Assembly: GCA_963812135.1 (NCBI GenBank)
Contig: CAWETU010000001.1
Location: 1,152,001 to 1,216,000, forward strand
DNA from: Vulcanimicrobiota bacterium
GTDB lineage: Bacteria; Vulcanimicrobiota; Vulcanimicrobiia; Eremiobacterales; Eremiobacteraceae
Length of the DNA: 64,000 nucleotides
Direction: 5' to 3'
A program made the position numbers and the translations under genes. Of the stretch, positions 34,202-48,663 are shown one piece after another. The notes below the pieces were generated by a model. It had not been told where the DNA came from. It was given only the letters and a program-made list of their open reading frames with translations, and ran no database searches. Within the stretch, counting starts at the first letter, position 1, and every line of letters starts with the position of its first letter.

Positions 34202-37200
34202 GTGATCTTGCGAATCATCGTCACCGCGGTGTTCGTGGCGTTAGCGATGGCAGCATGGTCGATGGTCGCGCGCACCGCGGGTACCGTCGGCGTCAATAAG
34301 GCATTCGCTCCATCAAGCGTCAGCTTCGGAACGGACTCGACGCTCACCATCACGCTGCTCAACAGCGATCCGACCGCATCGGTCAACATCACGACGATGA
34401 CGGACAATATGCCGGCCGGGCTGTCCGTCGATCTTGGCCAGCCTGCGACGACGACGTGCGCGGGGGGGGTCGTCGGCACGACGGTATCGAGCGTGACGTT
34501 GACGGGCGGCGTGATTCCGCAGGCGCCAGATTCGTTCAACCCCGGCACATGTACGGTGACGCTCTCCGTATACGGCGCTGCCACGCAGAATTATGTCAAC
34601 ACCATTCCCGCCGGCGGCCTCGTGACGAGCGCCGGCAACAACGGCACGCCCGGCAGCGCGACGCTGCAAGTCACCGACCCCGGGAACATCGGCGTCGCGG
34701 TCAGCGTCCTCCCGACGCAGGTGCCCGAAACAGCTTCGCCCGTGTACACGGTCACGATCACCAACCCGAACAAGCTTGCGCTCACCAACGTGACGATCCC
34801 GGGCACGTTGACGAGCCCCTCAGGCGGTGCCACGCTGCACATCGTCAGCGCGGTGAGCAGCTGCGGCGGTTCGGTCGTCGTCGTGAATGGATCGCCGACG
34901 ACGTTCACGGTCACCGGCGCGACGATACCCGCGAACGGATCCTGTACGGTGACGGTCACCGTCAGCGTCAACGGCCAGTTCAGCAACAGTCAGCGCACGC
35001 AACGGTTGACGATCGCAGCGGGCGCCGTCACTTCCGCACAAGGCGTGACGAATAGCACCGGGTCGCAGGCCGATGTCACATACTTCCCGATCACGCCGAC
35101 GATCTCCAAGACCTTCACGCCGAACGTGACGGTACCAGGGGCGACGGTCTTGGTGACGCTCAATGTGGTCAGTCGCGACACCGTCGCGCTCACCAACTTC
35201 GGCTTCACCGACGTGCTGCCGGGGGGGTTGACTCTTGGAGCACCGCCCAATCTCGCCAACTCGTGCGGTGGTCCGGCGGGTTCGATCTCGGGAACGACGA
35301 CGGTCGTCGTATCTGGGTTGACGATAACGCAGGCTGCGAGCCTGGGCGCAAGTGGTCCTACGTGCCACGTCTCGTTCAACGTGCTGGTGCCGCTGGCGCC
35401 TCCCAGCCAGACGCCCACGAATTCGGTCGGCGCCAGCAGCGTGGTCAATGATCAAGGGTTGAAACCCCTGTCCGCTGCGAGTGCCGTGCTGACGGTCGGC
35501 CCGACGCCGACCCCACAACCGACGTTTAGCAAGGCGTTCTCGCCATCGACCGTTGCCCGAGGCAATAACTCAACCCTCACCATCAACGTCATCAATCCCG
35601 CCGGCGGGCTGCAACTCAACAACGTGAGCGTCACCGACACCTTGCCGGGGGCCTTGACCATCTTCTCGGCCCCGACGGCGAATGCGAATTGCGGTGCCCC
35701 GACGCTGGGCGGCGCACCGGGCGGCACGGTGATCACGATGACCGGCGGAACTATTCTCGCCGGAGCGCACACTTGCACCATCTCGGTCGTCGTCTCGACA
35801 GCCAACGTGACGCAACCATTCAACGTCACCTTGAAGAACGACATTCCGCCCGGCGGTATCACGGCAGTCAAGTCAGACCTCACGCCCGTGAGCAACGCAG
35901 CCGACGTCACCGCGAACTTGATCGTCTCGCATGGGCTCAGCCTAGTCCATTATTTCTCGCCTACCGGGTCCACGACGGTCGGCGTCGCTCCGATCAAAGA
36001 CACCATCAGCGTCGAGGACAAGATCGTTTCGACGGCGGCGTCGGACGACCACAACCTCTCCGCAGTCTTCACGCTGAATGCGTCCGGGTCGGCCGTTGTA
36101 CTCGCCGCAGTGCCGAATTTCACATACGTGTGCACGAAGGGTTCGGTCTTGACGTTCACGCCCGGCGTGGGGGGCTTGACCTATACCGCGGCCTCGGCCG
36201 ATTTCATCTTCAAAGACACGTGCACGATCACATACTCGGTAACGTCGCTCACCGCTGGCACATTCACCGCCGGCAAGATGACCGTCTCGAGCACCGAGGA
36301 TAATCTGCAGACTCTTTCAGGCTCGAACAACGTGATCTTCGTTAGCCCAGGGAACATCAACGTCAACAAGACGTTCACGCCGAACGCGATCCCCGCGGCC
36401 GGCATCTCACACATGCAGATCACGCTGTCGAACGACGCCCATGCGGCGCCCGGCGGAATCGTCTTCAACGAGACCGGCGTCGCGCTGACGGATAACATGC
36501 CGGCGGGCATGACCGTCGCCGCAGTACCAAATGCGAGCACGACCTGCGCCTCGGCTACGCTGACTGCGGTCGCCGGCGCGAGCAGCGTGTCGATCAGCGG
36601 CGCTTCCTTGCCGTCACGCACTGCAGGCGATGCGTTGCAGCCGTGCACCATCACGGTCGACGTCACAGCGACCGTGCCAGGCAATCTCACGAACACGATA
36701 CCGGCTGGATCCGTCACCTCGGGTTCGGGTGCCACCAATGCATTCGCCGTGAGCGTGTCCTTGACGTCGTCGGCGAACATCGGCCTGTCGAAGGCGTTCT
36801 TGCTCACGACGATCCCGCCGGGCGGCTCGACCTGGGTCGCGCTGACGTTCACGAACGGGTCGAACATCAGCGAGACGGTCAACAGTCTAACTGACAATCT
36901 GCCCAGCGGTATCGTCGTCAAAGATATCGTGTCACAGCCGCCGCCCCAGGGCGGGGCGCCGCCGAACTGCGGCGCAACCGTCACCGGCGTGGCCGGCGGC
37001 AGTTCGTTCACGGCGAGCAATTTCACCCTTGCACCGGCAGCCAAATGCGTCACGTACGTCGCCATAACGACGTCGACACCAGTCCAATTCGGTGTCTTTA
37101 ACAACACGATTCCCGCTGGCGCGATCGTCTCGGGCAGCGGCTTATCGAACCTGCAGCCGGCCACCGCGACCATCACGGTGGCGGCGGTGTCGCTGTCACT

Positions 37201-37510
37201 GGGCAAGCTCGTGCGCAACGTGACGACCGGCGGCACCAACGGCACCACCGCCAACGCGTCGCCGGGCGATACGCTGCTCTACACGCTGACCTACACGAAT
37301 ACGAGTCCGTTCGCCGAAGCGAACCTTGCCATCAAGGACACATTGCCGCCCAACACGACATTCGTCAGCGCCACCTGCGGCACGCTCGGCGGCGGCTTGA
37401 CGGCATGTACGCCTTCGGGTCCGACCCTGGGCGTGGTGACCTGGACGCTGACCGGAACGCTCAACGCCGGTGGCACGGGGACGGTCTTCTTGACGGTGAC
37501 GGTGCAGTAG
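34202..37510 (+). CDS. Secreted protein of 8 tandem DUF11-like Ig domains; last domain C-terminally incomplete (predicted tip adhesin)
   Basis: Signal peptide after GTG 34202 (alternative ATG 34151); repeats xxKxF...TDxLP...CT...NTI; ends GTVFLTVTVQ. Confidence 0.8.
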   Translation: MILRIIVTAVFVALAMAAWSMVARTAGTVGVNKAFAPSSVSFGTDSTLTITLLNSDPTASVNITTMTDNMPAGLSVDLGQPATTTCAGGVVGTTVSSVTLTGGVIPQAPDSFNPGTCTVTLSVYGAATQNYVNTIPAGGLVTSAGNNGTPGSATLQVTDPGNIGVAVSVLPTQVPETASPVYTVTITNPNKLALTNVTIPGTLTSPSGGATLHIVSAVSSCGGSVVVVNGSPTTFTVTGATIPANGSCTVTVTVSVNGQFSNSQRTQRLTIAAGAVTSAQGVTNSTGSQADVTYFPITPTISKTFTPNVTVPGATVLVTLNVVSRDTVALTNFGFTDVLPGGLTLGAPPNLANSCGGPAGSISGTTTVVVSGLTITQAASLGASGPTCHVSFNVLVPLAPPSQTPTNSVGASSVVNDQGLKPLSAASAVLTVGPTPTPQPTFSKAFSPSTVARGNNSTLTINVINPAGGLQLNNVSVTDTLPGALTIFSAPTANANCGAPTLGGAPGGTVITMTGGTILAGAHTCTISVVVSTANVTQPFNVTLKNDIPPGGITAVKSDLTPVSNAADVTANLIVSHGLSLVHYFSPTGSTTVGVAPIKDTISVEDKIVSTAASDDHNLSAVFTLNASGSAVVLAAVPNFTYVCTKGSVLTFTPGVGGLTYTAASADFIFKDTCTITYSVTSLTAGTFTAGKMTVSSTEDNLQTLSGSNNVIFVSPGNINVNKTFTPNAIPAAGISHMQITLSNDAHAAPGGIVFNETGVALTDNMPAGMTVAAVPNASTTCASATLTAVAGASSVSISGASLPSRTAGDALQPCTITVDVTATVPGNLTNTIPAGSVTSGSGATNAFAVSVSLTSSANIGLSKAFLLTTIPPGGSTWVALTFTNGSNISETVNSLTDNLPSGIVVKDIVSQPPPQGGAPPNCGATVTGVAGGSSFTASNFTLAPAAKCVTYVAITTSTPVQFGVFNNTIPAGAIVSGSGLSNLQPATATITVAAVSLSLGKLVRNVTTGGTNGTTANASPGDTLLYTLTYTNTSPFAEANLAIKDTLPPNTTFVSATCGTLGGGLTACTPSGPTLGVVTWTLTGTLNAGGTGTVFLTVTVQ

Positions 37511-37512
37511 CG

Positions 37513-39252
37513 TCAGGCTTTTGACGCGATCTCCTCGCCGAGTTTGATCGCGAATTCATCGGGCGTCATGGTCGTCTGCTCGCCCGAGCGCGAGCGCACG
37601 TTGACCTTGTTCTCCGCCACTTCGCTCTTACCAACCACGAGCATGTAAGGCACCTTGCGCATCTGTTGATTGCGGATCTTTTTCTGCAGCCGCTCATTGG
37701 ATCGGTCGACCTCGACGCGGAAACCGGCCGATGCCAGCGACATCGCGACGCGCTCGGCATAGGGCGCCTGATCCTCGGCGATGGGCAGCACGACCGCTTG
37801 GACCGGCGCCAACCACGCGGGAAACGCGCCGGCGTAGTGCTCGATGAGCACGCCCATGAACCGCTCCAGCGAGCCGCACAAGGCACGGTGGATCATCACC
37901 GGCCGGTGTTCGGAGCCGTCCGCGCCGGCATACGTCAGCCCGAAGCGCTCGGGTAAGTTGAAATCGACCTGCACGGTCGAGAGTTGCCACTCCCGGCCGA
38001 TCGCGTCGCGCACTTTGATGTCGAGCTTGGGGCCGTAGAACGCGCCGCCGCCCTCGTCGATCTCGTATTTCAAACCGGCGTGATCGCAGGCGGCTTTGAT
38101 CGCGTTGGTGGCGCGCTCCCAGAGCGCGTCGTCGCCGAGCGCGTTCGGGGGCTTCGTCGAGACGAACATCTTGTAGTCGTCGAACTTGAACGCCTTGAGC
38201 ACGGTCAGCGCGGCGTCGACGCAATCCTCGAACTCCTGCTGCAGCTGATCCGGCGTCACGAAAAGATGGGCGTCATCCATCGTGATCATTCGCACGCGCA
38301 GCAAGCCGTGCAGCGTGCCGGAGCGCTCGTCGCGATAGACGGTTCCGAACTCAGCGAGCCGAAGCGGCAGGTCGCGATACGAACGCGGCCGCGATTTGTA
38401 GATCAAGATGTGCCCCGGGCAGTTCATCGGCTTGACGCGATAGTGTTGTTCGTCGAGCTCGAACGGGCCGAACATGCTCTCGCTGAACGTCTTGAGATGG
38501 CCGGACGTCGCGAACAACGCCTCGCGCACCGCGTGCGGAGTGTACACGGGTTCGTAGCCGCGCCGGCGCAGCTCGCCGCGGATGAACTCCTCGATGACGC
38601 CTCGGACGCGACCACCCGCGGGATGCCAGAAGATGAGGCCGGGTCCCGCATCCTCCTCGATTGAGAAAAGATCAAGCTCTTTGCCGAGCCTGCGGTGATC
38701 GCGGCGTTCAGCTTCTTCGAGCTGCTTCAGATACTCGTCGAGCTCGTGCTGCGTCGGAAAGGCGGTGCCGTAGATGCGCTGCAACATCGGATTCTTCTCA
38801 TCGCCGCGCCAATACGCGCCGGCGACGGACAGCAGCTTCACGGCGCCGACTTCCGAGCTGCGCTCGACGTGGCCGCCGCGGCAGAGGTCGGTGAACTCGC
38901 CGATCGTGTACATCGACAGCGGCTCACCATCGGGAATGCCGGCGATGATGTCGAGCTTGAACGGCTGATCGAGCTTGGTGTAGTAGGCTAGCGCTTCGGC
39001 GCGCGTGACCGGCCTGCCGGTCATCTTGACGTCTTGCTTGATCAGCTCGCGCATGCGCGCTTCGATGCGCGGCAGATCTTCCGCCACGAACGGCGTGCTC
39101 TTGAGGAAGTCGTAGTAAAATCCGTCCTCGATCGCCGGCCCGATCGCGAGTTTGACATCATCGCCGAATAGATCGACGACCGCGTGCGCGAGCAGATGCG
39201 CCGCGGTATGCCGGGAGTGACCTAGGTCACGTTTTGTGTCTCCAGCGTCCAT
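37513..39252 (-). CDS. thrS: Threonine-tRNA ligase (short form lacking the N-terminal TGS domain)
   Basis: RHTAAHLLA, DLCRGGH, KPMNCPGH, GAFYGPKLD, IHRA...ERF. Confidence 0.97.
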   Translation of the reverse strand: MDAGDTKRDLGHSRHTAAHLLAHAVVDLFGDDVKLAIGPAIEDGFYYDFLKSTPFVAEDLPRIEARMRELIKQDVKMTGRPVTRAEALAYYTKLDQPFKLDIIAGIPDGEPLSMYTIGEFTDLCRGGHVERSSEVGAVKLLSVAGAYWRGDEKNPMLQRIYGTAFPTQHELDEYLKQLEEAERRDHRRLGKELDLFSIEEDAGPGLIFWHPAGGRVRGVIEEFIRGELRRRGYEPVYTPHAVREALFATSGHLKTFSESMFGPFELDEQHYRVKPMNCPGHILIYKSRPRSYRDLPLRLAEFGTVYRDERSGTLHGLLRVRMITMDDAHLFVTPDQLQQEFEDCVDAALTVLKAFKFDDYKMFVSTKPPNALGDDALWERATNAIKAACDHAGLKYEIDEGGGAFYGPKLDIKVRDAIGREWQLSTVQVDFNLPERFGLTYAGADGSEHRPVMIHRALCGSLERFMGVLIEHYAGAFPAWLAPVQAVVLPIAEDQAPYAERVAMSLASAGFRVEVDRSNERLQKKIRNQQMRKVPYMLVVGKSEVAENKVNVRSRSGEQTTMTPDEFAIKLGEEIASKA

Positions 39253-39412
39253 TGCGGGACGTTTCTCAGAAACCCGCGTGAGGACCTAGCGTGCTGTATG
39301 TCGTTTTGACGATAGTAATATCAAGCAGCCCCAGTTACAAATTGTTTGTACCAGGGGTCACAATGTGTGGGAGCCGCCGTTTGGCGGCAAGTCTTGGGGG
39401 ACGAGGAACGTC

Positions 39413-39901
39413 ATGCGTTTAGTAGCCCGGGGTATTCTTGTGTGCCTGAGCGTGATCGCGCTCACCGCATCGGTCGCGCTCGCGCGACCCGATGTCGTTT
39501 TGCATTTGAGCGGCGCAACCGTGCAACGCACGGCCAGCGGCGAGAAGCTCGTACCGCTTGACCCCGCTGTCAAGCTCAAAGCCGGCGAGGTCGTCCGCTG
39601 GACGATCGTCGGCACGAACAAAGGTTCCGATCCAGCGCTGCACTTCACGCCGGTTGATAAGATCGCCGCGGGCACCGCGTACATCGCGGGATCCGCAACC
39701 ATCGTGGGAGGGCGGCCAGAGTTTTCGCTGGACGAAGGCAAGACGTGGTCGCCAAAACCCATGGTGGTCGTCCAGTCCCCGACGGGTCCCGTCAACAAGC
39801 CAGCGGACCCGTCTTCATTCACGAACATCCGATGGATCGCTGACAAATCGCTCGCGCCCAAAGCAAGCGCGCGGTTTTCTTTTGAGGTCCGGGTGAAATG
39901 A
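39413..39901 (+). CDS. Small secreted single DUF11-like domain protein
   Basis: Signal peptide; AGEVVRWTIVGTNKG...VDKIAAGTAYIAGSA...NIRW...FSFEVRVK; GAGG RBS. Confidence 0.8.
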   Translation: MRLVARGILVCLSVIALTASVALARPDVVLHLSGATVQRTASGEKLVPLDPAVKLKAGEVVRWTIVGTNKGSDPALHFTPVDKIAAGTAYIAGSATIVGGRPEFSLDEGKTWSPKPMVVVQSPTGPVNKPADPSSFTNIRWIADKSLAPKASARFSFEVRVK

Positions 39902-42228
39902 CAAGGAGCAAAGCGAGACCCATGAACCAACCTCGGTTCGCGTCCCTTCTGCGTCCAGCGGTTGGCATAGCTGCTGCGGCGTTCGTCTGCTGCGCGCTGG
40001 CGTTCACGAGCCAGCCCGCCGCCGCAGCCACGGCAGCCGGCACCCTGATCTCGAACACCGCGTCGGCGACCTACACCGATACGAACGGCGTCAATTATTC
40101 GACCCAGTCGAACACCGTCGTGGTCGAGGTGCAAAACGCACCATCGCTCACGGTGTTCACCAATAACGGCGCAGCGCCCGGCACCGGCACCGGCGTGCCG
40201 AACTCGTGTTTCGCAGATGTCTACACGCTGACGAACACGGGTAACGGAATCGGTCACTTCCAACTGCCGACCATCTCGCCACCGTTCGCGGGCAGCGATG
40301 CCGGTTCGGTCACGACCACGTCGTATTCGCTGTCGATCAACGGCGGCGCCACGACCACGGGCATGACGCTGGCGGCGCTCAACGCGGCGCTCGCGGCGCC
40401 TGGCGGTCTGATCCCAGCCGGCGGCAACGTCGTCATCACGATCAACTATTGCATCGGTGGGGCGGTCGTGCCCGGCACGATCATCTCGACGGTGCAGGCC
40501 AACATCAAGTACTTCGCGGCCGACCAGCCCAACCCGGGTGGTCTTGTCGACACGACGTCGGCGAACGTGACGAACACGTACACCGATACGATCACCGGCG
40601 ACGCGCGGCTCGACCTGCAGAAGACGGTCTCGATCACCGGTCCGGCGGGCGCGCCCGTGGTCAACTACACGGTCAAGGCTGCCAACGGTGGCAACGCGGC
40701 GGCGCGTACGCTGACGAGCGTGCAGGGCATCGGCTCCGGCGCGCCCTTCACCACGCCCGGCGTGCTCGCGGTGGCTGACAAGATCCCGCTCTTCGCGGCG
40801 ACGACGTTGACGCTCAACGGCGTGCCGGCGTTGGCGACGAATATCGGCAACGGCTTTGTCGCAGGATCGGTCGCGACCATCGTCTACTCGACGGATCCCA
40901 CTGGCGCCACCAGCTGGTCGACCAGTGCGGTGAACGCGAAGTGGATCGGCGTGTACGTCACCAACGGGGCAGCCTACTCGCCGGTGTTCAACACGAACGG
41001 CACGTCGGCGGCCGGCAACGTCCCCAATCCGGCGATCACGCTGACGTTCTCCGTGAACGGGCCTACCGGACCTGGCTCGGGTAACCCGAACGCGGTCTGC
41101 AACATCGCCAACAGCGTCGTCGGTGGCGACGCCAATAACGCCAATCCCTCGCAGCTCATCGGACCGACGATCACCAGTTTGGTGAACGATGGGTCCGCGG
41201 GCGCAGCGACGCAGATCAACAACGCCATCAACAACACGACGGCTCTCGCGAACCCGAGCGGCGCGTCGCAGTTCGTCTGCGTCGCGATGCCGGCGAACCG
41301 CGCCGTGCTCAACGGTCCGCGGACCGCACCGGGCGCGACGGGCAGTTTCGACGGCGTCGTCGCGGTGAGCAACGACAATGACTTCACCGACGTCGGCTTC
41401 GTGCAACCTGCGTTCACGATCGTGAACGCCGGCACGGTGCCGGGCACGCCGAACGGCAACAACTTCTCCGCGGCCGTGTCGGGCATCAACGCCTCGAGCG
41501 ACGTCATGAACAACGGCAACGTGGACGACACCTACAACATCGTCGCCACCGCGCCGGCCGGTTTTACCGTGCAGTTGTTCCAAGACAACGGTGCGAACGC
41601 GCCGAGCGCGACGCCGCTTGGCGGCGCGACCGCCGGTGCGACGTCGACTGCCACGGGCGTAGCGGTCGCGTCGGGCGTGACGCTGCACTACTGGGCGGTC
41701 TACAGCGCGCCCAACGGCACGCAATCGCTCAAACGCTACGACGGCAACACCATCGCCACGAGCGGTGCCGATGCCACCATCCACAACGAGACGCACCATG
41801 AGCTGTATTCCAGCTTCGTGGCGCTGACCAAGTCGGTCGTGATCGTGACGAACTGCTCGGGCCCCGTGCCGGCCAACGGCGTGTGCCCGGGCGGCACGCT
41901 CACGTACACGCTTGACTACAGGACGATCGTCACGATACCTGGTGCGGGCAATACTGAGCCTGCGGCCGCGATCTTGACGACATCGGCCGGGTCGGTGGTC
42001 GTCACCGAAGACGGCGCCGCTGCTCCCAACAACTGGGCAACGTTCACGAATGGACTCAACGGAGCGGTGATCGACTCGAACGCCTGGGGCACCGTGTTCA
42101 CGTACACGCCTGGTCCAGGCCCGGCCACTGCGACGAAGTTCACGGCGCAGCTGGGCGGCGCGAGCGGGGTGCTGTCTCCGACGGGAACCGCGCAGGGCAC
42201 GCTGACCTTCGCCCTTACCGTGAAGTAA
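39898..42228 (+). CDS. Secreted DUF11-type protein, predicted major fibre subunit (alternative ATG 39922)
   Basis: Signal peptide, then AATAAGTLISNTASATY; internal DUF11 domain; incomplete terminal domain ending GTLTFALTVK. Confidence 0.8.
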   Translation: MTRSKARPMNQPRFASLLRPAVGIAAAAFVCCALAFTSQPAAAATAAGTLISNTASATYTDTNGVNYSTQSNTVVVEVQNAPSLTVFTNNGAAPGTGTGVPNSCFADVYTLTNTGNGIGHFQLPTISPPFAGSDAGSVTTTSYSLSINGGATTTGMTLAALNAALAAPGGLIPAGGNVVITINYCIGGAVVPGTIISTVQANIKYFAADQPNPGGLVDTTSANVTNTYTDTITGDARLDLQKTVSITGPAGAPVVNYTVKAANGGNAAARTLTSVQGIGSGAPFTTPGVLAVADKIPLFAATTLTLNGVPALATNIGNGFVAGSVATIVYSTDPTGATSWSTSAVNAKWIGVYVTNGAAYSPVFNTNGTSAAGNVPNPAITLTFSVNGPTGPGSGNPNAVCNIANSVVGGDANNANPSQLIGPTITSLVNDGSAGAATQINNAINNTTALANPSGASQFVCVAMPANRAVLNGPRTAPGATGSFDGVVAVSNDNDFTDVGFVQPAFTIVNAGTVPGTPNGNNFSAAVSGINASSDVMNNGNVDDTYNIVATAPAGFTVQLFQDNGANAPSATPLGGATAGATSTATGVAVASGVTLHYWAVYSAPNGTQSLKRYDGNTIATSGADATIHNETHHELYSSFVALTKSVVIVTNCSGPVPANGVCPGGTLTYTLDYRTIVTIPGAGNTEPAAAILTTSAGSVVVTEDGAAAPNNWATFTNGLNGAVIDSNAWGTVFTYTPGPGPATATKFTAQLGGASGVLSPTGTAQGTLTFALTVK

Positions 42229-42253
42229 CGGAGAAGGCGGTAGGAGCCTGACG

Positions 42254-44398
42254 GTGTTCCGTTGGTTGGTCCCGATTCTGGCGGCGGCTAGCGTCGGCGC
42301 GGTCGTACTTGCGACTGCGCCGGCGCTCGCTGCTACTCCGGCGGGCACGCTGATCAGCAACACCGCGTCCGCCACGTACTCGGACCAGTCCGGCACCGCG
42401 TACGCCACCGACTCGAATACGATCGTGGCGCAGGTGCAGGCGGTCGCGTCGCTGACGGTCTCGCCAAAAGAAGCGGTAGTCAATCCGGGGCTCGACGCGT
42501 ACGCGGTCGGCATGCCGGTGACGCGCCGCTTCATCATCACCAACACCAGCAACCTCACCGACGCATACACGATCCAATCCGCGACGACCAGCGCGGGCAC
42601 GATCACCGCGATCAATTTCGTCGTGCCTCCGGGTGGTCCGACCATCCCCGTCACCGTCGGCAGCACGATTTCGCCAAACGTCGTGCCGGGCGGCACGATG
42701 TTCGTGGACGTCACGGTGAACACGACGGGCATCCTCGTCGGCGCATCCTGGTCCATCAACATCAAAGCCCAGACCACGGTGGCGGGCACTGCGAACGGAT
42801 TGCAATCCGACACCGGTCAACGCTGGGCGATCGCGGTGCCCGGTCCCAACCTTAGCGGCATCAAGAAGTTGGTGGGCGGCCAGGCCTCGACACAGGCGGC
42901 ACCGGGCAGCACGGTCGCCTTTAGCATCTCGTTCACCAACACAGGCGGGCTGCCGGCAAACAACGTCGTCGTCACCGATGTCGTTCCCGTTGGCTTGCAC
43001 CCGCTCTTGAATTCCGTGCTCATCAACGGCGTCGCAGCCGGCGGCCAAGCGACCCTCGTCGGCCAAACGCTCACCGTCACGATTCCAACCGTCGCCGCCT
43101 CGCAGACGATCGTCATCGCGTTCAATGCGACCATCGACTCCGCTGCGGCGTTGGGCACGAGCTACGTCAATACGGCGCAGGTTGTCGCCACCGGCTTTGG
43201 CCCGGTGACTTCGCCGCCCGCGAGCGTGTTCGTCGGCACCGGCAACATCGTCTACGATGGTCTCGGCGGCGCGGGCCACCCGATCCCCGGCGCGCAGCTG
43301 ACGATCCTCAAGCCGCCGTCCATCACGCCGTACGCATTGACGGGTACGGGCGTCGCGCCGAACACATTGAACGCCAACCCCTATTCGACCGACGCCACCG
43401 GTTCGTATTCGTTCGGGTTCGGCAGCGGCCAGTTCGGCGGTGTCGGGGGCGACGCGCACTACACGCTCTTGGTGAGTGCGACCGGGTATCTCAACCGCCG
43501 CATCGACATCCTGCTGCACGCGGATCCGACGGGCACGTTGTACACGGCGACAATCACCGCGCTTGACGGGCAACTGCTCGCGGTGCCGGGCGGCTTCAAC
43601 CTGACATCTGGGCCGGTGGTGCTGAACAACGTCTTCAATCTGCTCGGGAATATCCCGATGTTCACCGCGCACCCGATCACCATTACGAAGACCGTCGATC
43701 AACAAGCGGTCGTCACCGGCAATCGCCTCATCTTCGCGGTGACCTTCGCGAACGCGTCGCTCGCGACGCTGACGAACGCGACGCTGATCGACACGTTGCC
43801 GCCGGGTGTCGCGTATGGCCCCGGCACCGCGCGCGTCGACGGCGTGCCGCAAGAGCCGCACGTGAATGGCCGCGTCCTTACCTGGACATTTGGCACCATG
43901 GCGCCATCGACGTCGCACACGATCGTGTACGGCGCCGTCGTGCTGCCGGAAGCGACGATCAACACGACGGTCGTCAACGTCGCCGCGCTGACGGCATTCG
44001 CGCAGGGCGCGCCGCTGAGCGCGTCGGCACAGGCATCGGTGGTGATCCTCGGCGGCGGCGCGTTCTCGTTCACGATTCCGATCACCGGGCGCGTCTTCAT
44101 CGACGTGGGCGGGCTCGGAAGGTTCGTCCCTGGCGATCAGGGTGTCTCCGGCGTTCGGCTGTATCTCGAGGACGGTCAGTACTCGGTCACCGACGCGCAA
44201 GGGCGCTACTCGTTCCCGTCGACACGGCCCGGCATGCACGTGATCAAACTGGATGCCTCGACGCTGCCGACCGGAGTGCGGCTGTTCCCCGATCCGCTCG
44301 ATTACGATAGTCCGCACAGCGCGACGCGGCTCGTGCACGGCATTCTCGACACTGGCCTGCTGCAAGACATCAACTTCGCAGTGGAGGCGGCCAAGTGA
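42254..44398 (+). CDS. Secreted DUF11 + SdrD-B/CnaB-like protein, predicted anchor/adaptor
   Basis: ATPAGTLISNTASATY N-terminus; two complete DUF11 domains; ITGRVFID...GVSGVRLYLEDG...TDAQGRYSF...LDASTLP; AGGAG RBS. Confidence 0.82.
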   Translation: MFRWLVPILAAASVGAVVLATAPALAATPAGTLISNTASATYSDQSGTAYATDSNTIVAQVQAVASLTVSPKEAVVNPGLDAYAVGMPVTRRFIITNTSNLTDAYTIQSATTSAGTITAINFVVPPGGPTIPVTVGSTISPNVVPGGTMFVDVTVNTTGILVGASWSINIKAQTTVAGTANGLQSDTGQRWAIAVPGPNLSGIKKLVGGQASTQAAPGSTVAFSISFTNTGGLPANNVVVTDVVPVGLHPLLNSVLINGVAAGGQATLVGQTLTVTIPTVAASQTIVIAFNATIDSAAALGTSYVNTAQVVATGFGPVTSPPASVFVGTGNIVYDGLGGAGHPIPGAQLTILKPPSITPYALTGTGVAPNTLNANPYSTDATGSYSFGFGSGQFGGVGGDAHYTLLVSATGYLNRRIDILLHADPTGTLYTATITALDGQLLAVPGGFNLTSGPVVLNNVFNLLGNIPMFTAHPITITKTVDQQAVVTGNRLIFAVTFANASLATLTNATLIDTLPPGVAYGPGTARVDGVPQEPHVNGRVLTWTFGTMAPSTSHTIVYGAVVLPEATINTTVVNVAALTAFAQGAPLSASAQASVVILGGGAFSFTIPITGRVFIDVGGLGRFVPGDQGVSGVRLYLEDGQYSVTDAQGRYSFPSTRPGMHVIKLDASTLPTGVRLFPDPLDYDSPHSATRLVHGILDTGLLQDINFAVEAAK

Positions 44399-47300
44399 GC
44401 GCGCGAGCTGCACTCGCGCGAATCACTCAAGCTGCGCTTGGGTGCTACATTCTGGCACTTTTGGCGGCGCCGGCGCTTGGCGCGCCGCCGACGGGCGCAA
44501 ACCTGAGCAACCTCACGTACACGGCGACCTCGGATCTGAGCGCGACGCTGTTGTCTCCAGCGGATAAGACCGCCTCGGCGACGAGCGCGGCGAAGATCCT
44601 CGTCTCCACCGTTGCGGGCGCCGGGGTCGAGCTGCGCGTGAATGGCAACGTCATTTCCGCGAAACAAATCGGCATGCGCTCGATCAACAAGAAGACGGGC
44701 GAGACGCGCTACGAGTTCTTCGGCGTCGTGCTCGAGCCGGGCCCCAACGTTGTGCAGTTGACCCCGCTCGGCGCAGACGACCAGCGCGGTCCGACAACGA
44801 GCTACACGCTGTTCGGTCCTGGCAAGCCCGTCCACTTCGCATTCGGACTCGATCGATCGCTGCGCGCCGACGGCGGCAACACGGTGTCAACGTTGATCAT
44901 CAGCGCGACGGACCGATGGAACAACCCCGCCATGCCAGGCGCCATCATCAAGGTCGGCATCGTGTCCGGCGACCTGCACCTGCTGGTGGCGACGTCCGCG
45001 GCGCAAGGCGAGCAGCCCCACTATCACCGCGCGAGCGCGGTCGAGATCCCGGTCGCGCCGGGCGGCATCGAGCAGCTTCCGATGGTGGCCGGATTGCTAC
45101 CCGGCGAAGCGCTCGTGCAGGTCACAGCCGCCGACGTCGTGACCAGCGAGCGATTCTACATCGATCCGAACCTGCGCAAGCCCTTCGTCGCCGGATTGAT
45201 CACCGCAGGCGCAGGTCCAGTGCCCGGATTCGCCGGCATGCCCGCCGCGGTGCCGGATGGGCAACAGACGCGTTTGGGCCGCATCGCGATTTTCGGCACC
45301 GGCGTCGTGAACCACGACATCCTGGCGACCATCGCATATGATACCGCGAACGTGCTGCAGCAGAATCTGCTCGGCCCGTACGTCGTCGATCCCTACGACC
45401 GCCCGTTCCAGACGTACGGCGACACGAGCTACCAGAACAACGACGCGTTGTCCCGCGACCATCTGTACGCGCGCTTCGACCGCAATCAGAGCAGCTTCGT
45501 CTGGGGCGAGTTCCGCCCCGACACCGGTTCGCCCGATCCCGACGGCGCGTTTCATCTCCTGGTGGACGGCGCCAAGCTCGAGCTTGGGACCAGCCGCACG
45601 CGCGTCGTCGCGTTCAACGCGAACAACGATTTCGCGTATGCGCGCCAACAGTTTAATCCGACCGGTCTCTCGCTCGGCGGTCAACTGCTCCATCCGAACA
45701 TCGTCGTCGGCTCAGACGTCGTGACGCTCGTCGTGCTCGACAAACGCACGGGTGCGGTTCTGAACCAGACCACGCTCGTGAACAACATCGACTACACGCT
45801 GGATTACTCCACCGGGCTGCTGCGCTTCATCAACATCCCGCTGCCCTACGATGACCATTTCAATCCTCAAGTCGTCCAGGTGCAGTACGAATACGGCGGC
45901 TCGGGCGTCAACTCGGAAACCACGGGCGGCCGCGCAAGCATGCTGCTCGATAGCAAGGGCAACCTGCGGCTGAACATCGGCTACGTCAACGACTCGACCG
46001 GCATGGCCAACTTCACGCTCTTCGAGCAGAGCCTGCAGGGCGCGATGCACGGCGGTTCGTGGAGCATCGCGCACATCGCGTCGAATGGCCCCGCGCTTGG
46101 CACGACGCTCGGTCCGACCGAGGCGGGCTCGTCGGTGCATGCGACATTCAGCGAGGTGTCCGGCTCCAACCGGCTCGCGTTTGATTTCACCACGGCGAGC
46201 GCCGGCTTCAACAACCCCTTCGGCGGTTTTGCGACGCCGGGCCTGACCAACTACAATTTGGAAGCCAAGCATCTGTTCAATCCGAACAGCGACATCACGC
46301 TCAACTACAACTTGCAGCACAACATCAGCACTGCGGGCAGCGAAGATCAGTCGCAAGCGTCGGTCGTGTATCACCACGTGTGGGGTGACCGGCTGCTCGC
46401 GAAACTCGGCGTGCAGACGAACGTCGTGTCGGGCGTGAGCGATCCGATCTCAGGCGCATCGGTGACCGGCTCCAACGCGCAAGCCATCCTGGGGCTCGGC
46501 TATAAGCTCTCGAAACGCCTGTCGCTCGGCGTCGAGGATATCGCGACGATCGGCGGCGGCACAACGACGCCGAGCGAGCCGTCGCAGACGATGGCGCAGC
46601 TCACCTATAGCGTGCCGAACAACACGAAGTTCTTCGTGCGCGAGCGCTGGAGTTCGCAGCCGACAGACAGTTTCGCGACGTCATCCGCGCCGTTCACAAC
46701 GGCGTCGCAGTCGACGCAGTCGTTCTCGGTCGGTTTCTCGCGCGACATGAGCGCCGCGATGTCGGTCGACAGCGAATGGGGCGTCGACCATACGAATAGC
46801 GGTCCGGACATCTACTCGGCATACGGCGTGCGCGAGAAGTTCAAGTTCGGCCGGAACCTGCAGGGCGATGCGTTCGCGCAGGACGGCAACGCGGTCGGCG
46901 GCGGGATGTCCGGGTTCTTCATCTACGGTCTGAACGCGTCGTACTCGAACACGCACAATTTCACCGCGGCCGCGTCGTGGCAGAACCGCACCGGGTCCCT
47001 GCCGGGCAGCAGCCTCACGGCCGGGTTCTCGGGTCCGCTCGGCACTAGCTTCGCGCTGCAGGGCACGCTGCAGAACTCGCGCACGCCGGATGCATTCGAC
47101 TATCAGGACCGCGTCGGCCTCGCATGGCGGCCGGCGAACAACGATCGCGGCGCCACGCTCGTCGAGTGGGATCATCGGATCGGCAATCTCTCCACCTTGA
47201 GCGAGCAGACGGACGTCATCATGGTGCAGCAGGTCTATCGCCCGACGCAAACGCTCGAACTGGCAGGCCGCTACGCGTATAAGATGGATGGCGGCGCGTT

Positions 47301-47589
47301 CTATCTGCCGCATACATCGCTGGTCGGCCTGCGCGCCGACGAGCGCATCGGCAAGCGTTACGATCTGGGCATCGAGACGCAGTTGGTCGAGCCGGCGGGC
47401 ATTCCGGCGGCGAAGTCCACCGATTTCGCGATCGAGAACGGTTACCGCATCGGCGGCTCGGCGCGGCTTGCGGTCGGTTACAACTTCGCGGGTTCGGCCG
47501 ATCCCACGCTCACCGGAGCTCCGGTGCGCAAGGGCGTTTACGTGACCCTCACGTCGATCGTCGACCGCATCTTCGGCTGGGGCCGGTAA
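44395..47589 (+). CDS. Large outer-membrane beta-barrel protein with N-terminal Ig-like domains
   Basis: Signal peptide; YGDTS, DYTLDYSTG; long run of amphipathic aromatic-ended strands; LAVGYNF...GVYVTL end. Confidence 0.75.
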   Translation: MSARAALARITQAALGCYILALLAAPALGAPPTGANLSNLTYTATSDLSATLLSPADKTASATSAAKILVSTVAGAGVELRVNGNVISAKQIGMRSINKKTGETRYEFFGVVLEPGPNVVQLTPLGADDQRGPTTSYTLFGPGKPVHFAFGLDRSLRADGGNTVSTLIISATDRWNNPAMPGAIIKVGIVSGDLHLLVATSAAQGEQPHYHRASAVEIPVAPGGIEQLPMVAGLLPGEALVQVTAADVVTSERFYIDPNLRKPFVAGLITAGAGPVPGFAGMPAAVPDGQQTRLGRIAIFGTGVVNHDILATIAYDTANVLQQNLLGPYVVDPYDRPFQTYGDTSYQNNDALSRDHLYARFDRNQSSFVWGEFRPDTGSPDPDGAFHLLVDGAKLELGTSRTRVVAFNANNDFAYARQQFNPTGLSLGGQLLHPNIVVGSDVVTLVVLDKRTGAVLNQTTLVNNIDYTLDYSTGLLRFINIPLPYDDHFNPQVVQVQYEYGGSGVNSETTGGRASMLLDSKGNLRLNIGYVNDSTGMANFTLFEQSLQGAMHGGSWSIAHIASNGPALGTTLGPTEAGSSVHATFSEVSGSNRLAFDFTTASAGFNNPFGGFATPGLTNYNLEAKHLFNPNSDITLNYNLQHNISTAGSEDQSQASVVYHHVWGDRLLAKLGVQTNVVSGVSDPISGASVTGSNAQAILGLGYKLSKRLSLGVEDIATIGGGTTTPSEPSQTMAQLTYSVPNNTKFFVRERWSSQPTDSFATSSAPFTTASQSTQSFSVGFSRDMSAAMSVDSEWGVDHTNSGPDIYSAYGVREKFKFGRNLQGDAFAQDGNAVGGGMSGFFIYGLNASYSNTHNFTAAASWQNRTGSLPGSSLTAGFSGPLGTSFALQGTLQNSRTPDAFDYQDRVGLAWRPANNDRGATLVEWDHRIGNLSTLSEQTDVIMVQQVYRPTQTLELAGRYAYKMDGGAFYLPHTSLVGLRADERIGKRYDLGIETQLVEPAGIPAAKSTDFAIENGYRIGGSARLAVGYNFAGSADPTLTGAPVRKGVYVTLTSIVDRIFGWGR

Positions 47590-47634: not shown

Positions 47635-48663
47635 TTAACGAGTCGCGAAGACGGACACCCATGACGGATCTTCAGTCACGCGCTGCGAGCGGCTGACGAC
47701 GTACAGCTGGCCGCGTGCGTCGAGCGCGACGCCTTCGACATACGCGCCCAGGCCTGCGTCGCTGCCGCCGATCGTGCGCACCGGCAGCGCGTTGCCCGAC
47801 GCACCGGGTGCGTACACCGTCACGTTACTGTCCACGAGATTCGAGACGTAGGCGTAACCATCGCCGTCCACCGCGATGCCCTGCGGCGTGTCGAGCGCTG
47901 TCTGGCTGCCGGTGATGATCCGCGCCGGCTTCGCGTCGCCATTCGCGTTCGGAGCGAAGACGATGATGCTGTCGATGCCGAGGTTGACCCGGCCGCTGTT
48001 CACGACGTAGACGAAACCGTGCGAGTCAACCGTCAAGCCGAGCGGCGTGTCGAGCGTCGTGTGCGGACCGGAGATCGTGCGGACCGGAGCGGACTGCCCC
48101 TTCGCCCCGGGACCGTAGACCGTGACCGAGTTCGCGGCGCTGACCATCGCTCCGTAGTTCGCGACGTACAGATCGCCGTGCGGGCCGAATGCCAGTCCCT
48201 TTGGCTTGAGAATGCCGTTGGTGATGGTGCGCGCCGGCACGGAGTCGCCGTGCGCCGTCTTGTCAAAGACGAGGATCGCGCCCGGTCCTTCGCTCGTGCC
48301 GCCGCCCGAGGTGCCGCTGCTGGCGACGTAGAGCTCGCCGGCCGCATCGAGCGCGATCCCGCCCGGCCGGGCAAGGGCACCGCTGATCGTCCGGATCGGC
48401 GCGGTATCGCCGCTGCCGCTTGGCGCATAGACGGTGATCGTGTCGCGTTTTGCCGCCAGCGATCCATCGTTGCTGACGTAGATGTTGCCGTTGGGATCGA
48501 CGACGATGCCGCTCGGCCACAGCAGTCCGGTGTTCGCGCCTTTGATGATGCGCGCCGGCGTGCCGAGCGGCGCGCCGCCGGCCTCCGATGAGGGGCCGGC
48601 GATCAATGCGGCAAGACAGACGGTCGCACATAGCGCGAACACGACGCTGTGAGACGGTCGCAT
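47635..48663 (-). CDS. Secreted NHL-repeat beta-propeller protein
   Basis: About 6 repeats of PxGIAVDxxGxxYVxN...VxVY(A/G)PxAxGxxAPxRTI. Confidence 0.85.
   Translation of the reverse strand: MRPSHSVVFALCATVCLAALIAGPSSEAGGAPLGTPARIIKGANTGLLWPSGIVVDPNGNIYVSNDGSLAAKRDTITVYAPSGSGDTAPIRTISGALARPGGIALDAAGELYVASSGTSGGGTSEGPGAILVFDKTAHGDSVPARTITNGILKPKGLAFGPHGDLYVANYGAMVSAANSVTVYGPGAKGQSAPVRTISGPHTTLDTPLGLTVDSHGFVYVVNSGRVNLGIDSIIVFAPNANGDAKPARIITGSQTALDTPQGIAVDGDGYAYVSNLVDSNVTVYAPGASGNALPVRTIGGSDAGLGAYVEGVALDARGQLYVVSRSQRVTEDPSWVSVFATR

Follow-up and report, generated by a model that had tools for sequence, protein, structure and literature searches.

Candidate surface fibre built on a split CLIPPER (DUF11) domain in a diderm bacterium of the Vulcanimicrobiota

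Introduction

A stretch of 64,000 nucleotides from a soil bacterium of the Vulcanimicrobiota (GenBank assembly GCA_963812135.1, contig CAWETU010000001.1, positions 1,152,001 to 1,216,000; termed the window in the following) contains five genes, TIP, SML, SHAFT, BASE and OMP, which probably encode a five-part surface-fibre system. Its building block would be an isopeptide domain of the DUF11 family that is split between neighbouring subunits. TIP and SHAFT each end in a domain that breaks off ahead of the strand which carries the reactive asparagine in intact domains, and the mature N-termini of SHAFT and BASE consist of a hairpin that corresponds to the missing piece. A fibre of the composition TIP-(SHAFT)n-BASE, n being at least 1, is the arrangement that we favour with moderate confidence.

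DUF11 was renamed 'CLIPPER' in a survey of 2025 and is a CnaA-like immunoglobulin (Ig) domain (PMC12617251). The crystal structure 9IFR contains an intramolecular isopeptide triad of Lys715, Asp748 and Asn806 in a domain spanning residues 708–828, and in CLIPPER domains the lysine is located in the first strand, the aspartate after the second strand and the asparagine in the penultimate strand (PMC12617251). DUF7933 and DUF7925 are listed as sister isopeptide families. The survey scanned models of single chains and is concerned with intrachain bonds; neither 'split' nor 'truncated' appears as a word in its text (PMC12617251).

The present analysis follows up a sequence-only reading of the window. 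Its observations were confirmed and its interpretation is partly supported. The open reading frames (ORFs) and their translations are as it had described them, and its description of intact domains with lysine, aspartate and asparagine in one chain, of terminal domains ending before the asparagine strand, of nearly identical mature N-termini supplying that strand and of a tip with acceptor only, a shaft with both parts and a base with donor only agrees with the data given below. The same is true for its assignment of OMP to the outer membrane, here based on a model, and for its diderm setting; no sortase was found in the genome.

Acceptor domains of TIP and SHAFT

TIP consists of a signal or transmembrane segment, seven DUF7933 repeats and a C-terminal truncated DUF11 domain, as seen in Pfam searches. 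The match of this last domain comprises profile positions 10–84 of 114, its final residue being 1118 in a protein of 1119; with TIGR04226 it comprises positions 14–85 of 123. The C-terminal domain of SHAFT corresponds to columns 4–96 of the 131 columns of an intact BASE domain (hhalign; probability 78 %, E 1.9e-5). Both domains end right after the sixth strand, with lysine and acid kept and the asparagine strand absent. DUF11 (PF01345) was matched with 50 bits by TIP and with 58.6 bits by BASE at a cut-off of 24.6, and both also passed TIGR01451. No Pfam family was matched by SHAFT or OMP, nor by SHAFT 630–776 and the donor 40-mers when these were searched alone; the tie of the SHAFT acceptor to DUF11 is via the hhalign alignment only. 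A phmmer search of the PDB sequences with the TIP C-terminus or BASE yielded no relevant chain, and 9IFR was not retrieved.

The two residues expected on the acceptor side are strongly conserved. Lysine and aspartate occur in 15/15 TIP-type C-termini each, all of which have the same terminal strand. At the position of K645 in SHAFT a lysine is found in 59 of the 63 donor-bearing and 36 of the 41 acceptor-only sequences of this type, the other nine being seven alignment gaps and two substitutions (A, T). An acidic residue, E or D, occupies position 704 in 61/63 and 39/41 of these sequences, respectively, and in all that are aligned there. Among 43 shaft homologues K645, D705, G706 and W713 vary little or not at all. 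A conserved lysine and a conserved acid in a domain without an asparagine of its own make sense if the asparagine comes from another chain.

The terminal domains of TIP and SHAFT thus differ from the internal domains of BASE and from domain 2 of SHAFT, which hold the triad within one chain. In 61 aligned BASE proteins the intact domain D2 has K205 in 59, D242 in 61 and N306 in 61 sequences, and the intact domain D3 has K479 in 57, D513 in 57 and N575 in 59 sequences.

The SHAFT acceptor also contains a cysteine pair, C653/C662 (CSGPVPANGVC, 41854–41883), the first of which is present in at least 90 % of the homologues. The two residues may form a disulfide, as many CLIPPER domains from Gram-negative phyla are reported to do (PMC12617251).

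Donor hairpins of SHAFT and BASE

The mature N-termini of SHAFT and BASE are identical in 25 of 36 residues, a value that was reached by 0 of 100000 composition-preserving shuffles, the best of which gave 13. This match was missed by BLASTP with default settings and seen with composition adjustment and masking switched off. By eye, both donors are N-terminal and follow AxA-type signal peptides. The hairpin of SHAFT is formed by strands at residues 50–60 and 66–77. In hhalign the donors of SHAFT and BASE align with columns 98/99–130 of 131 of the intact BASE domain, which complement those covered by the acceptor, but taken alone this alignment is weak (E 0.012–0.023, probability <4 %).

Two asparagines of the hairpin are almost without exception conserved: N53 in 69/69 shaft-class donors and its equivalent N36 in 67/68 base-class donors, N72 in 69/69 and its equivalent N55 in 68/68. 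Invariant in the 43 shaft homologues are T45, I51, N53, A55, D61, S71, N72, V78 and P82. N53 is located 25 residues before V78, a spacing that matches the asparagine of 9IFR, about 22 residues before the end of its domain.

BASE has no truncated domain. The 'SdrD-B' domain which the sequence-only reading had placed in BASE scored 19.9 bits compared to a Pfam cut-off of 29.7 and is below threshold. In the C-termini of TIP, SML, SHAFT and BASE no LPXTG motif was seen; they end in a beta-strand and have no hydrophobic tail.

Conservation of the polarity in related loci

The distribution of donors and acceptors was surveyed in 4281 ORFs of at least 100 amino acids (aa) from 80 related loci and the window, which were classed by their best BLASTP match to the window proteins. 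A donor hidden Markov model (HMM) matched 138 ORFs, namely 69 of the shaft class, 68 of the base class and one fragment; it had been trained on shaft homologues, so that the shaft matches arise partly by construction and the base matches do not. There were no donor matches among the tip, small and barrel classes. The shaft-acceptor HMM matched 104 ORFs, of which 63 have a donor and 41 do not, and in 102 of them the match ends at most three residues from the C-terminus. None of the 68 donor-bearing base-class ORFs was matched by the acceptor model. An unbroken order SML-SHAFT (donor and acceptor)-BASE (donor)-OMP, with SML first, is present in 48 of 81 sources, and most of the remaining ones are cut off at a contig end or contain broken frames. 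Many loci have an acceptor-only gene 3' of the barrel gene; its placement upstream, beyond thrS, is limited to the window and the two loci most closely related to it.

These data bear on the simplest alternative, in which the proteins are ordinary single-chain DUF11 adhesins and their truncations are due to chance or to mis-called gene ends. DUF11 proteins are indeed common and variable in their repeats. However, 102 of 104 acceptor domains would hardly stop at the same strand by chance, a signal peptide stands between each stop and the next donor, the pattern recurs in 80 loci, and the identity of the two hairpins was not approached by any shuffle. This explanation is extremely improbable.

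The homologues bear Eremiobacterota/Vulcanimicrobiota names. Eight loci (L043, L049, L057, L067, L068, L076, L077 and L078) originate from metagenome-assembled genomes labelled Alphaproteobacteria, Rhodospirillales, Verrucomicrobiia, Limnocylindria or Acidiferrales. Their proteins are 28–39 % identical to the SHAFT of the window, like those from Eremiobacterota, and the odd labels could be explained by mis-binning or horizontal transfer.

Three proteins from outside the Eremiobacterota (P0066–P0068), one of them named Pyrinomonadaceae, start with the same GT.ISN.A.A.Y.D...SNTV hairpin and end directly after a ...GTFT.RR.I strand. They carry both the hairpin and a truncated C-terminus, and the donor-plus-acceptor design therefore extends beyond one phylum. 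DUF7925 clusters of similar appearance are most frequent in Acidobacteriota and Cyanobacteriota. The class of split-domain fibres may be widespread.

Models of SHAFT and of the donor–acceptor complex

An AlphaFold2 (AF2) model of the SHAFT monomer (predicted local distance difference test, pLDDT, 87.5; predicted template modelling score, pTM, 0.70) shows the hairpin followed by Ig-like domains. In a structural comparison with VIA, domain 1 (~80–234) resembles RrgB (Z 9.6, root mean square deviation, rmsd, 2.9, 128 residues aligned), domain 2 (~235–465) matches collagen-binding CnaA domains and also 9IFR (Z 8.1, rmsd 2.9, 122/123 residues aligned), and domain 3 (466–640) matches PorA-N over 127 aligned residues (Z 10.6, rmsd 3.0). 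Foldseek with the whole model gave generic multi-Ig matches only. The internal region 233–465 (window ~40594–41292) possesses an intact triad, K242/D294/N402, and its counterpart in the relatives from other phyla is Pfam DUF7925. With this triad and the split terminal domain, one protein combines intact and split isopeptide domains.

When SHAFT 636–776 and SHAFT 44–83 were modelled as a complex, each partner being given with its alignment, a score of 0.71 was obtained (runs 0.74, 0.71 and 0.71), and the best of three controls reached 0.00. Among 157 solved complexes 116 attained this mark, compared to 2 among 215 mismatched pairs, a benchmark that is rough for the present case since our own alignment was used. 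At least 93 % of the contacts are common to the runs and the pLDDT of the partner is at least 81. Residues 699–704 pair with 55–59, residue 643 is in contact with A55 and S71, and W713 with 51–52. The model supports docking in the sense that both fragments together resemble a single domain, rather than speaking for binding in the cell. The fit between the SHAFT C-terminal domain and the N-terminal peptide suggested by the sequence-only reading is thereby reproduced in a model.

A closure in cis is conceivable, in which the hairpin of SHAFT inserts into the C-terminal domain of the same molecule, SHAFT proteins are closed monomers and the similarity to BASE reflects shared ancestry. The AF2 monomer, in which the pLDDT is ~80 for the hairpin and ~90 for the C-terminal domain, could be understood as such a self-complementation; the VIA search barely covered residues 640–776 and is uninformative on the packing of the hairpin in the monomer. 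The matches to domain 1 begin at residues 79–85 and not at the hairpin, which consequently lies outside the canonical fold of that domain. Furthermore, a donor is absent from TIP and from 41 other acceptor-only proteins, and an acceptor from 68 donor-bearing base-class proteins, and all of these need partners in trans. We consider closure in cis very unlikely.

A second alternative retains the complementation in trans but not the polymer. A single copy each of TIP, SHAFT and BASE would form a fixed three-piece adhesin which originated from a long fibrillar adhesin gene split at domain boundaries. Each acceptor end precedes the next donor start (small protein, SHAFT, BASE), as would be expected after gene fission, and there is a single shaft gene per locus. 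On the other hand, SHAFT possesses both a donor and an acceptor, and the pair that passed in the model is a SHAFT donor with a SHAFT acceptor, so that self-addition is at least compatible with the model. A fixed stalk is rather improbable on these grounds, and TIP-(SHAFT)n-BASE remains our preferred composition.

The small protein SML

SML has a signal peptide and a single DUF11-like domain which breaks off at the strand where the acceptors stop and ends with FSFEVRVK; a donor is missing. It corresponds to columns 4–95 of 131 of the intact domain (profile alignment; probability 96 %) and passes TIGR01451 with 29.3 bits (cut-off 24) but not the cut-off of Pfam DUF11. In SML the position of the lysine is occupied by Leu or Pro, depending on the alignment, and in most of 29 homologues that of the aspartate by Gly or Ala. 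Without the reactive lysine and mostly without the aspartate SML is not an isopeptide acceptor. The sequence-only reading had counted it among the acceptors, which holds for the point of truncation and not for the reactive residues. In our reading SML would most likely hold donor hairpins reversibly and without bonding, acting as a chaperone or cap or regulating the length.

The properties of SML are also relevant for the question whether the joint is covalent. The strand complementation could be the same as proposed here and yet non-covalent, with lysine, acid and asparagine merely stabilising the core by hydrogen bonds. The fold evidently tolerates the loss of K and D in SML, position 705 of SHAFT is D or N, and oligomers of BsaA are stable in sodium dodecyl sulfate (SDS) without the isopeptide (N35A; bioRxiv 10.1101/2024.11.04.621531). 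Against this stands that the positions of K, acid and N are those of the proven CLIPPER triad, and that the triad is near-invariant in the proteins which need a partner and lost only in SML, which would have to release it. A purely non-covalent joint is therefore unlikely, though not to a degree that we would disregard it.

The barrel protein OMP

The AF2 model of OMP (36 homologues; pLDDT 75, pTM 0.58) contains about 40 strands of 7–16 residues between positions 264 and 1056. The best Foldseek matches are LptD barrels with template modelling (TM) scores of only 0.17–0.31. VIA gave Z values of 10–13 to SusC-like proteins, Occ, TamA, AlgE, PapC/FimD and other outer membrane (OM) barrels, all of them partial matches, and Z 10–11 for the Ig part compared to intimin D00–D1. 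OMP is thus predicted to be an OM barrel much larger than any match. The idea that it is an usher homologue was dropped, since PapC/FimD match no better than unrelated barrels and PF00577 is absent from the genome.

Of the 201 genomes sampled from the phylum, 41 contain the barrel gene (good quality, 36 of 171; genera, 26 of 80), which makes the system an accessory one with patchy distribution. In seven more distant members of the phylum (G009, G016, G022, G027, G031, G100 and G103) ORFs of 307 to 1823 aa match the barrel profile partly, at columns ~250–580 and 820–1040 with E values of 1e-26 to 1e-36. These ORFs may encode barrels of related but different systems.

Proposed assembly

The split, its conservation, the fit of donor and acceptor in a model, the barrel fold and the diderm genome without sortase are backed by computation. 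By analogy with chaperone-usher pili and with the chemistry of CLIPPER domains, we infer the following order of events. All subunits would be exported by Sec, and the donor hairpins would possibly be restrained by SML. TIP would be engaged first. The open domains of TIP and SHAFT would supply the lysine (K1019 and K645, respectively) and the catalytic acid (D1063 and E704), and the hairpins of SHAFT and BASE the missing two strands together with the asparagine. Each incoming hairpin would insert into the open domain of the distal, previous subunit by donor-strand complementation, so that the chain TIP-(SHAFT)n-BASE would grow at its base. The completed triad would probably form the Lys-Asn isopeptide by itself under loss of ammonia, which would result in a covalent chain without a sortase. 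BASE would end the chain, because it has no open domain, and would tie the fibre to OMP, a giant barrel whose two Ig domains would lie on the periplasmic side.

Several observations weigh against this scheme. Besides the weak donor alignment, the training of the donor HMM on shaft homologues, the patchy occurrence of the barrel gene and the well-predicted hairpin and C-terminal domain of the SHAFT monomer, these concern the acid and the asparagine. Position 705 varies between D and N. In the complex model the contacts of K645 with the least error are S71 and V74, which lie next to N72, whereas the profile alignment favours N53 as the asparagine equivalent to that of CLIPPER domains. Finally, the pass of the complex model may partly reflect a memory of the intact fold, because intact CnaA/CLIPPER domains are present in the PDB.

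Organisation of the locus and genomic setting

The five fibre genes have the same orientation and are accompanied by one intruder on the opposite strand, thrS (Table 1). The stop of SML and the start of SHAFT overlap by 4 bases, as do the stop of BASE and the start of OMP, and SHAFT and BASE are separated by a gap of 25 bases; SML, SHAFT, BASE and OMP accordingly look like one operon. The position of thrS between TIP and the operon was also found in the two closest loci (L001 and L002). The encoded threonyl-tRNA synthetase is presumably shorter at its N-terminus than is typical for the bacterial enzyme. The locus is flanked by housekeeping genes, with purM, purN, pyruvate kinase and tsaD on its upstream side and genes for an NHL propeller and Ku on the other. 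The NHL/beta-propeller repeat protein is encoded directly downstream at 47635–48663 on the minus strand, and no link to the fibre genes was seen in other loci.

Table 1 Features of the fibre locus (positions in the window)
Feature	Position	Strand	Remarks
TIP (P0001), 1119 aa	34151..37510	+	ORF; alternative later start at 34202 equally possible
TIP acceptor domain, residues ~1015–1119	37193..37507	+	K1019, D1063; C-terminus FLTVTVQ-stop before the Asn strand
thrS, 579 aa	37513–39252	−	Convergent, separates TIP from the remaining fibre genes
SML (P0002)	39413..39901	+	ORF opens at 39365, probable start ATG 39413
SHAFT (P0003), 776 aa	39898..42228	+	Signal peptide, donor hairpin, three Ig-like domains, C-terminal acceptor domain
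SHAFT donor hairpin, residues 44–83	40027..40146	+	N53 = 40054–40056, N72 = 40111–40113
SHAFT acceptor domain, residues 640–776	41815..42225	+	K645 = 41830–41832, E704-D705 = 42007–42012; C-terminus LTFALTVK-stop
BASE (P0004), 714 aa	42254..44398	+	Signal peptide, donor hairpin, two intact DUF11 domains, C-terminal SdrD_B-like domain (sub-threshold)
BASE donor hairpin, residues 27–62	42332..42439	+	N36 = 42359–42361, N55 = 42416–42418
OMP (P0005), 1064 aa	44395..47589	+	Signal peptide, two Ig-like domains (~45–258), ~40 predicted long beta-strands (264–1056)

Within the source genome, which is 98.4 % complete, all six DUF11 matches and both donor motifs are confined to the fibre locus, the motif occurring only in SHAFT and BASE. 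BamA and LpxC are present. There was no match to the sortase profile PF04203 in this genome, and none to the usher (PF00577) and PapD (PF00345) profiles, both of which were matched by an E. coli control. The source organism is a diderm without sortase. Vulcanimicrobium alpinus, a cultured member of the phylum, has an OM bearing lipopolysaccharide, and the pili observed on its cells have been attributed to type IV pili (PMC9758169).

Comparison with known systems

The closest relatives in terms of the domain are the CLIPPER proteins around 9IFR. TIP and BASE pass Pfam DUF11 and belong to the same CnaA-like Ig family. In 9IFR, however, the triad is located in one chain, whereas the last two strands and the asparagine are here situated at the N-terminus of another protein.

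In terms of the joint, a close counterpart is BsaA of Clostridium perfringens, a member of the TasA family. A 'donor-strand exchange and lock' has been described for this protein, in which an intermolecular isopeptide forms spontaneously and without sortase after strand insertion, mutants having been made (bioRxiv 10.1101/2024.11.04.621531). The asparagine N35 is provided by the N-terminal donor, lysine K74 and the acid E56 by the acceptor. The conserved asparagine on the donor and the lysine and acid on the acceptor of the present system are an analogous arrangement, not a sign of homology. BsaA has a TasA-type instead of a CnaA-like Ig fold, consists of one-domain subunits and occurs in a monoderm; it depends on the signal peptidase SipW and a secretion linked to type IV pili, and neither an OM barrel nor a division into tip and base is described there. 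In a Pfam scan SHAFT matched no family and TIP, SML, BASE and OMP no TasA family, no direct comparison with BsaA having been made.

The archaeal thread protein Saci_0406 of Sulfolobus acidocaldarius likewise combines donor-strand complementation by an N-terminal tail with a proposed intermolecular isopeptide (PMC9715654). There, Asp24 is bonded through its N-terminal amine to Asn57 in subunit n+2 (PMC9715654). The thread differs from the present system also in being archaeal and in lacking an outer membrane and, as far as described, a Lys-acid-Asn triad, and homology between the two is not detectable.

Chaperone-usher pili (type 1 and P) resemble the proposed fibre in the division into an acceptor-only tip, a rod with donor and acceptor and a terminator with donor, and in an OM barrel encoded in the operon (PMC13721041). 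An N-terminal extension completes the incomplete Ig fold of the neighbour in these pili and, in the model, also here. Their subunits are joined non-covalently, through one donor strand each (PMC13721041). Moreover, their chaperone donates a strand to the groove of the subunit, whereas SML is shaped like an acceptor, and the barrel of OMP is far larger than the usher with its 24 strands and matches it no better than other barrels.

Sortase pili of Gram-positive bacteria (RrgB, SpaA and BcpA) are also covalent fibres of Ig pilins of the CnaA/CnaB type. They need a sortase and an LPXTG motif, and their joint connects a C-terminal threonine to a pilin lysine instead of completing the triad of a domain. 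SpyTag/SpyCatcher and SnoopTag/SnoopCatcher are engineered split isopeptide domains in which a peptide strand docks and is bonded without an enzyme. Such pairs are man-made splits of Gram-positive domains; in the present proteins the split would be natural and serve assembly. Type V pili of Bacteroidota (FimA/Mfa1) are made from lipoprotein precursors whose C-terminal donor strands are released by a protease. The donors described here are N-terminal. Two further candidates were rejected as related systems: the DUF11 matches of the 'tafi' paper are in fact DUF1102, and the Pam pili of the Candidate Phyla Radiation are an unrelated donor-strand system.

Donor-strand exchange combined with an isopeptide lock is known from BsaA and archaeal threads, and split domains from engineered pairs of the SpyTag type, and the principle is therefore not new. 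No published description of a naturally split CLIPPER domain, of a covalent diderm fibre formed without sortase, of a dedicated giant barrel or of a non-reactive acceptor was found in the accessible literature searched (subscription journals not covered). The claim of the sequence-only reading that the system is undescribed thus applies, within this literature, to a CLIPPER-based system of diderms and not to the principle: the split-CLIPPER fibre of diderm bacteria would be new, and the lock was known already.

Implications

Covalent pili are a hallmark of Gram-positive bacteria and require sortases, while the pili of Gram-negative bacteria are non-covalent. More tentatively than the existence of the fibre, and with some doubt prevailing, we propose that the system is a distinct class of diderm pili, characterised by an enzyme-free polymerisation via hairpins and split CLIPPER domains, a covalent lock by the triad, a barrel of its own as translocon and anchor, and a non-reactive helper. 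If the proposal is correct, diderms would form covalent fibres without an enzyme, through a self-crosslinking domain that is split between neighbouring subunits. This would be a further route of fibre assembly next to those of the chaperone-usher, type IV, type V and curli systems, and many 'hypothetical' DUF11 operons would be accounted for. The system would also point to an unusually large barrel that acts as translocon or anchor. For protein engineering, the system would offer natural orthogonal tag/catcher pairs together with a non-reactive 'blocker'. Finally, it would provide a first handle on the surface attachment of the poorly known Eremiobacterota.

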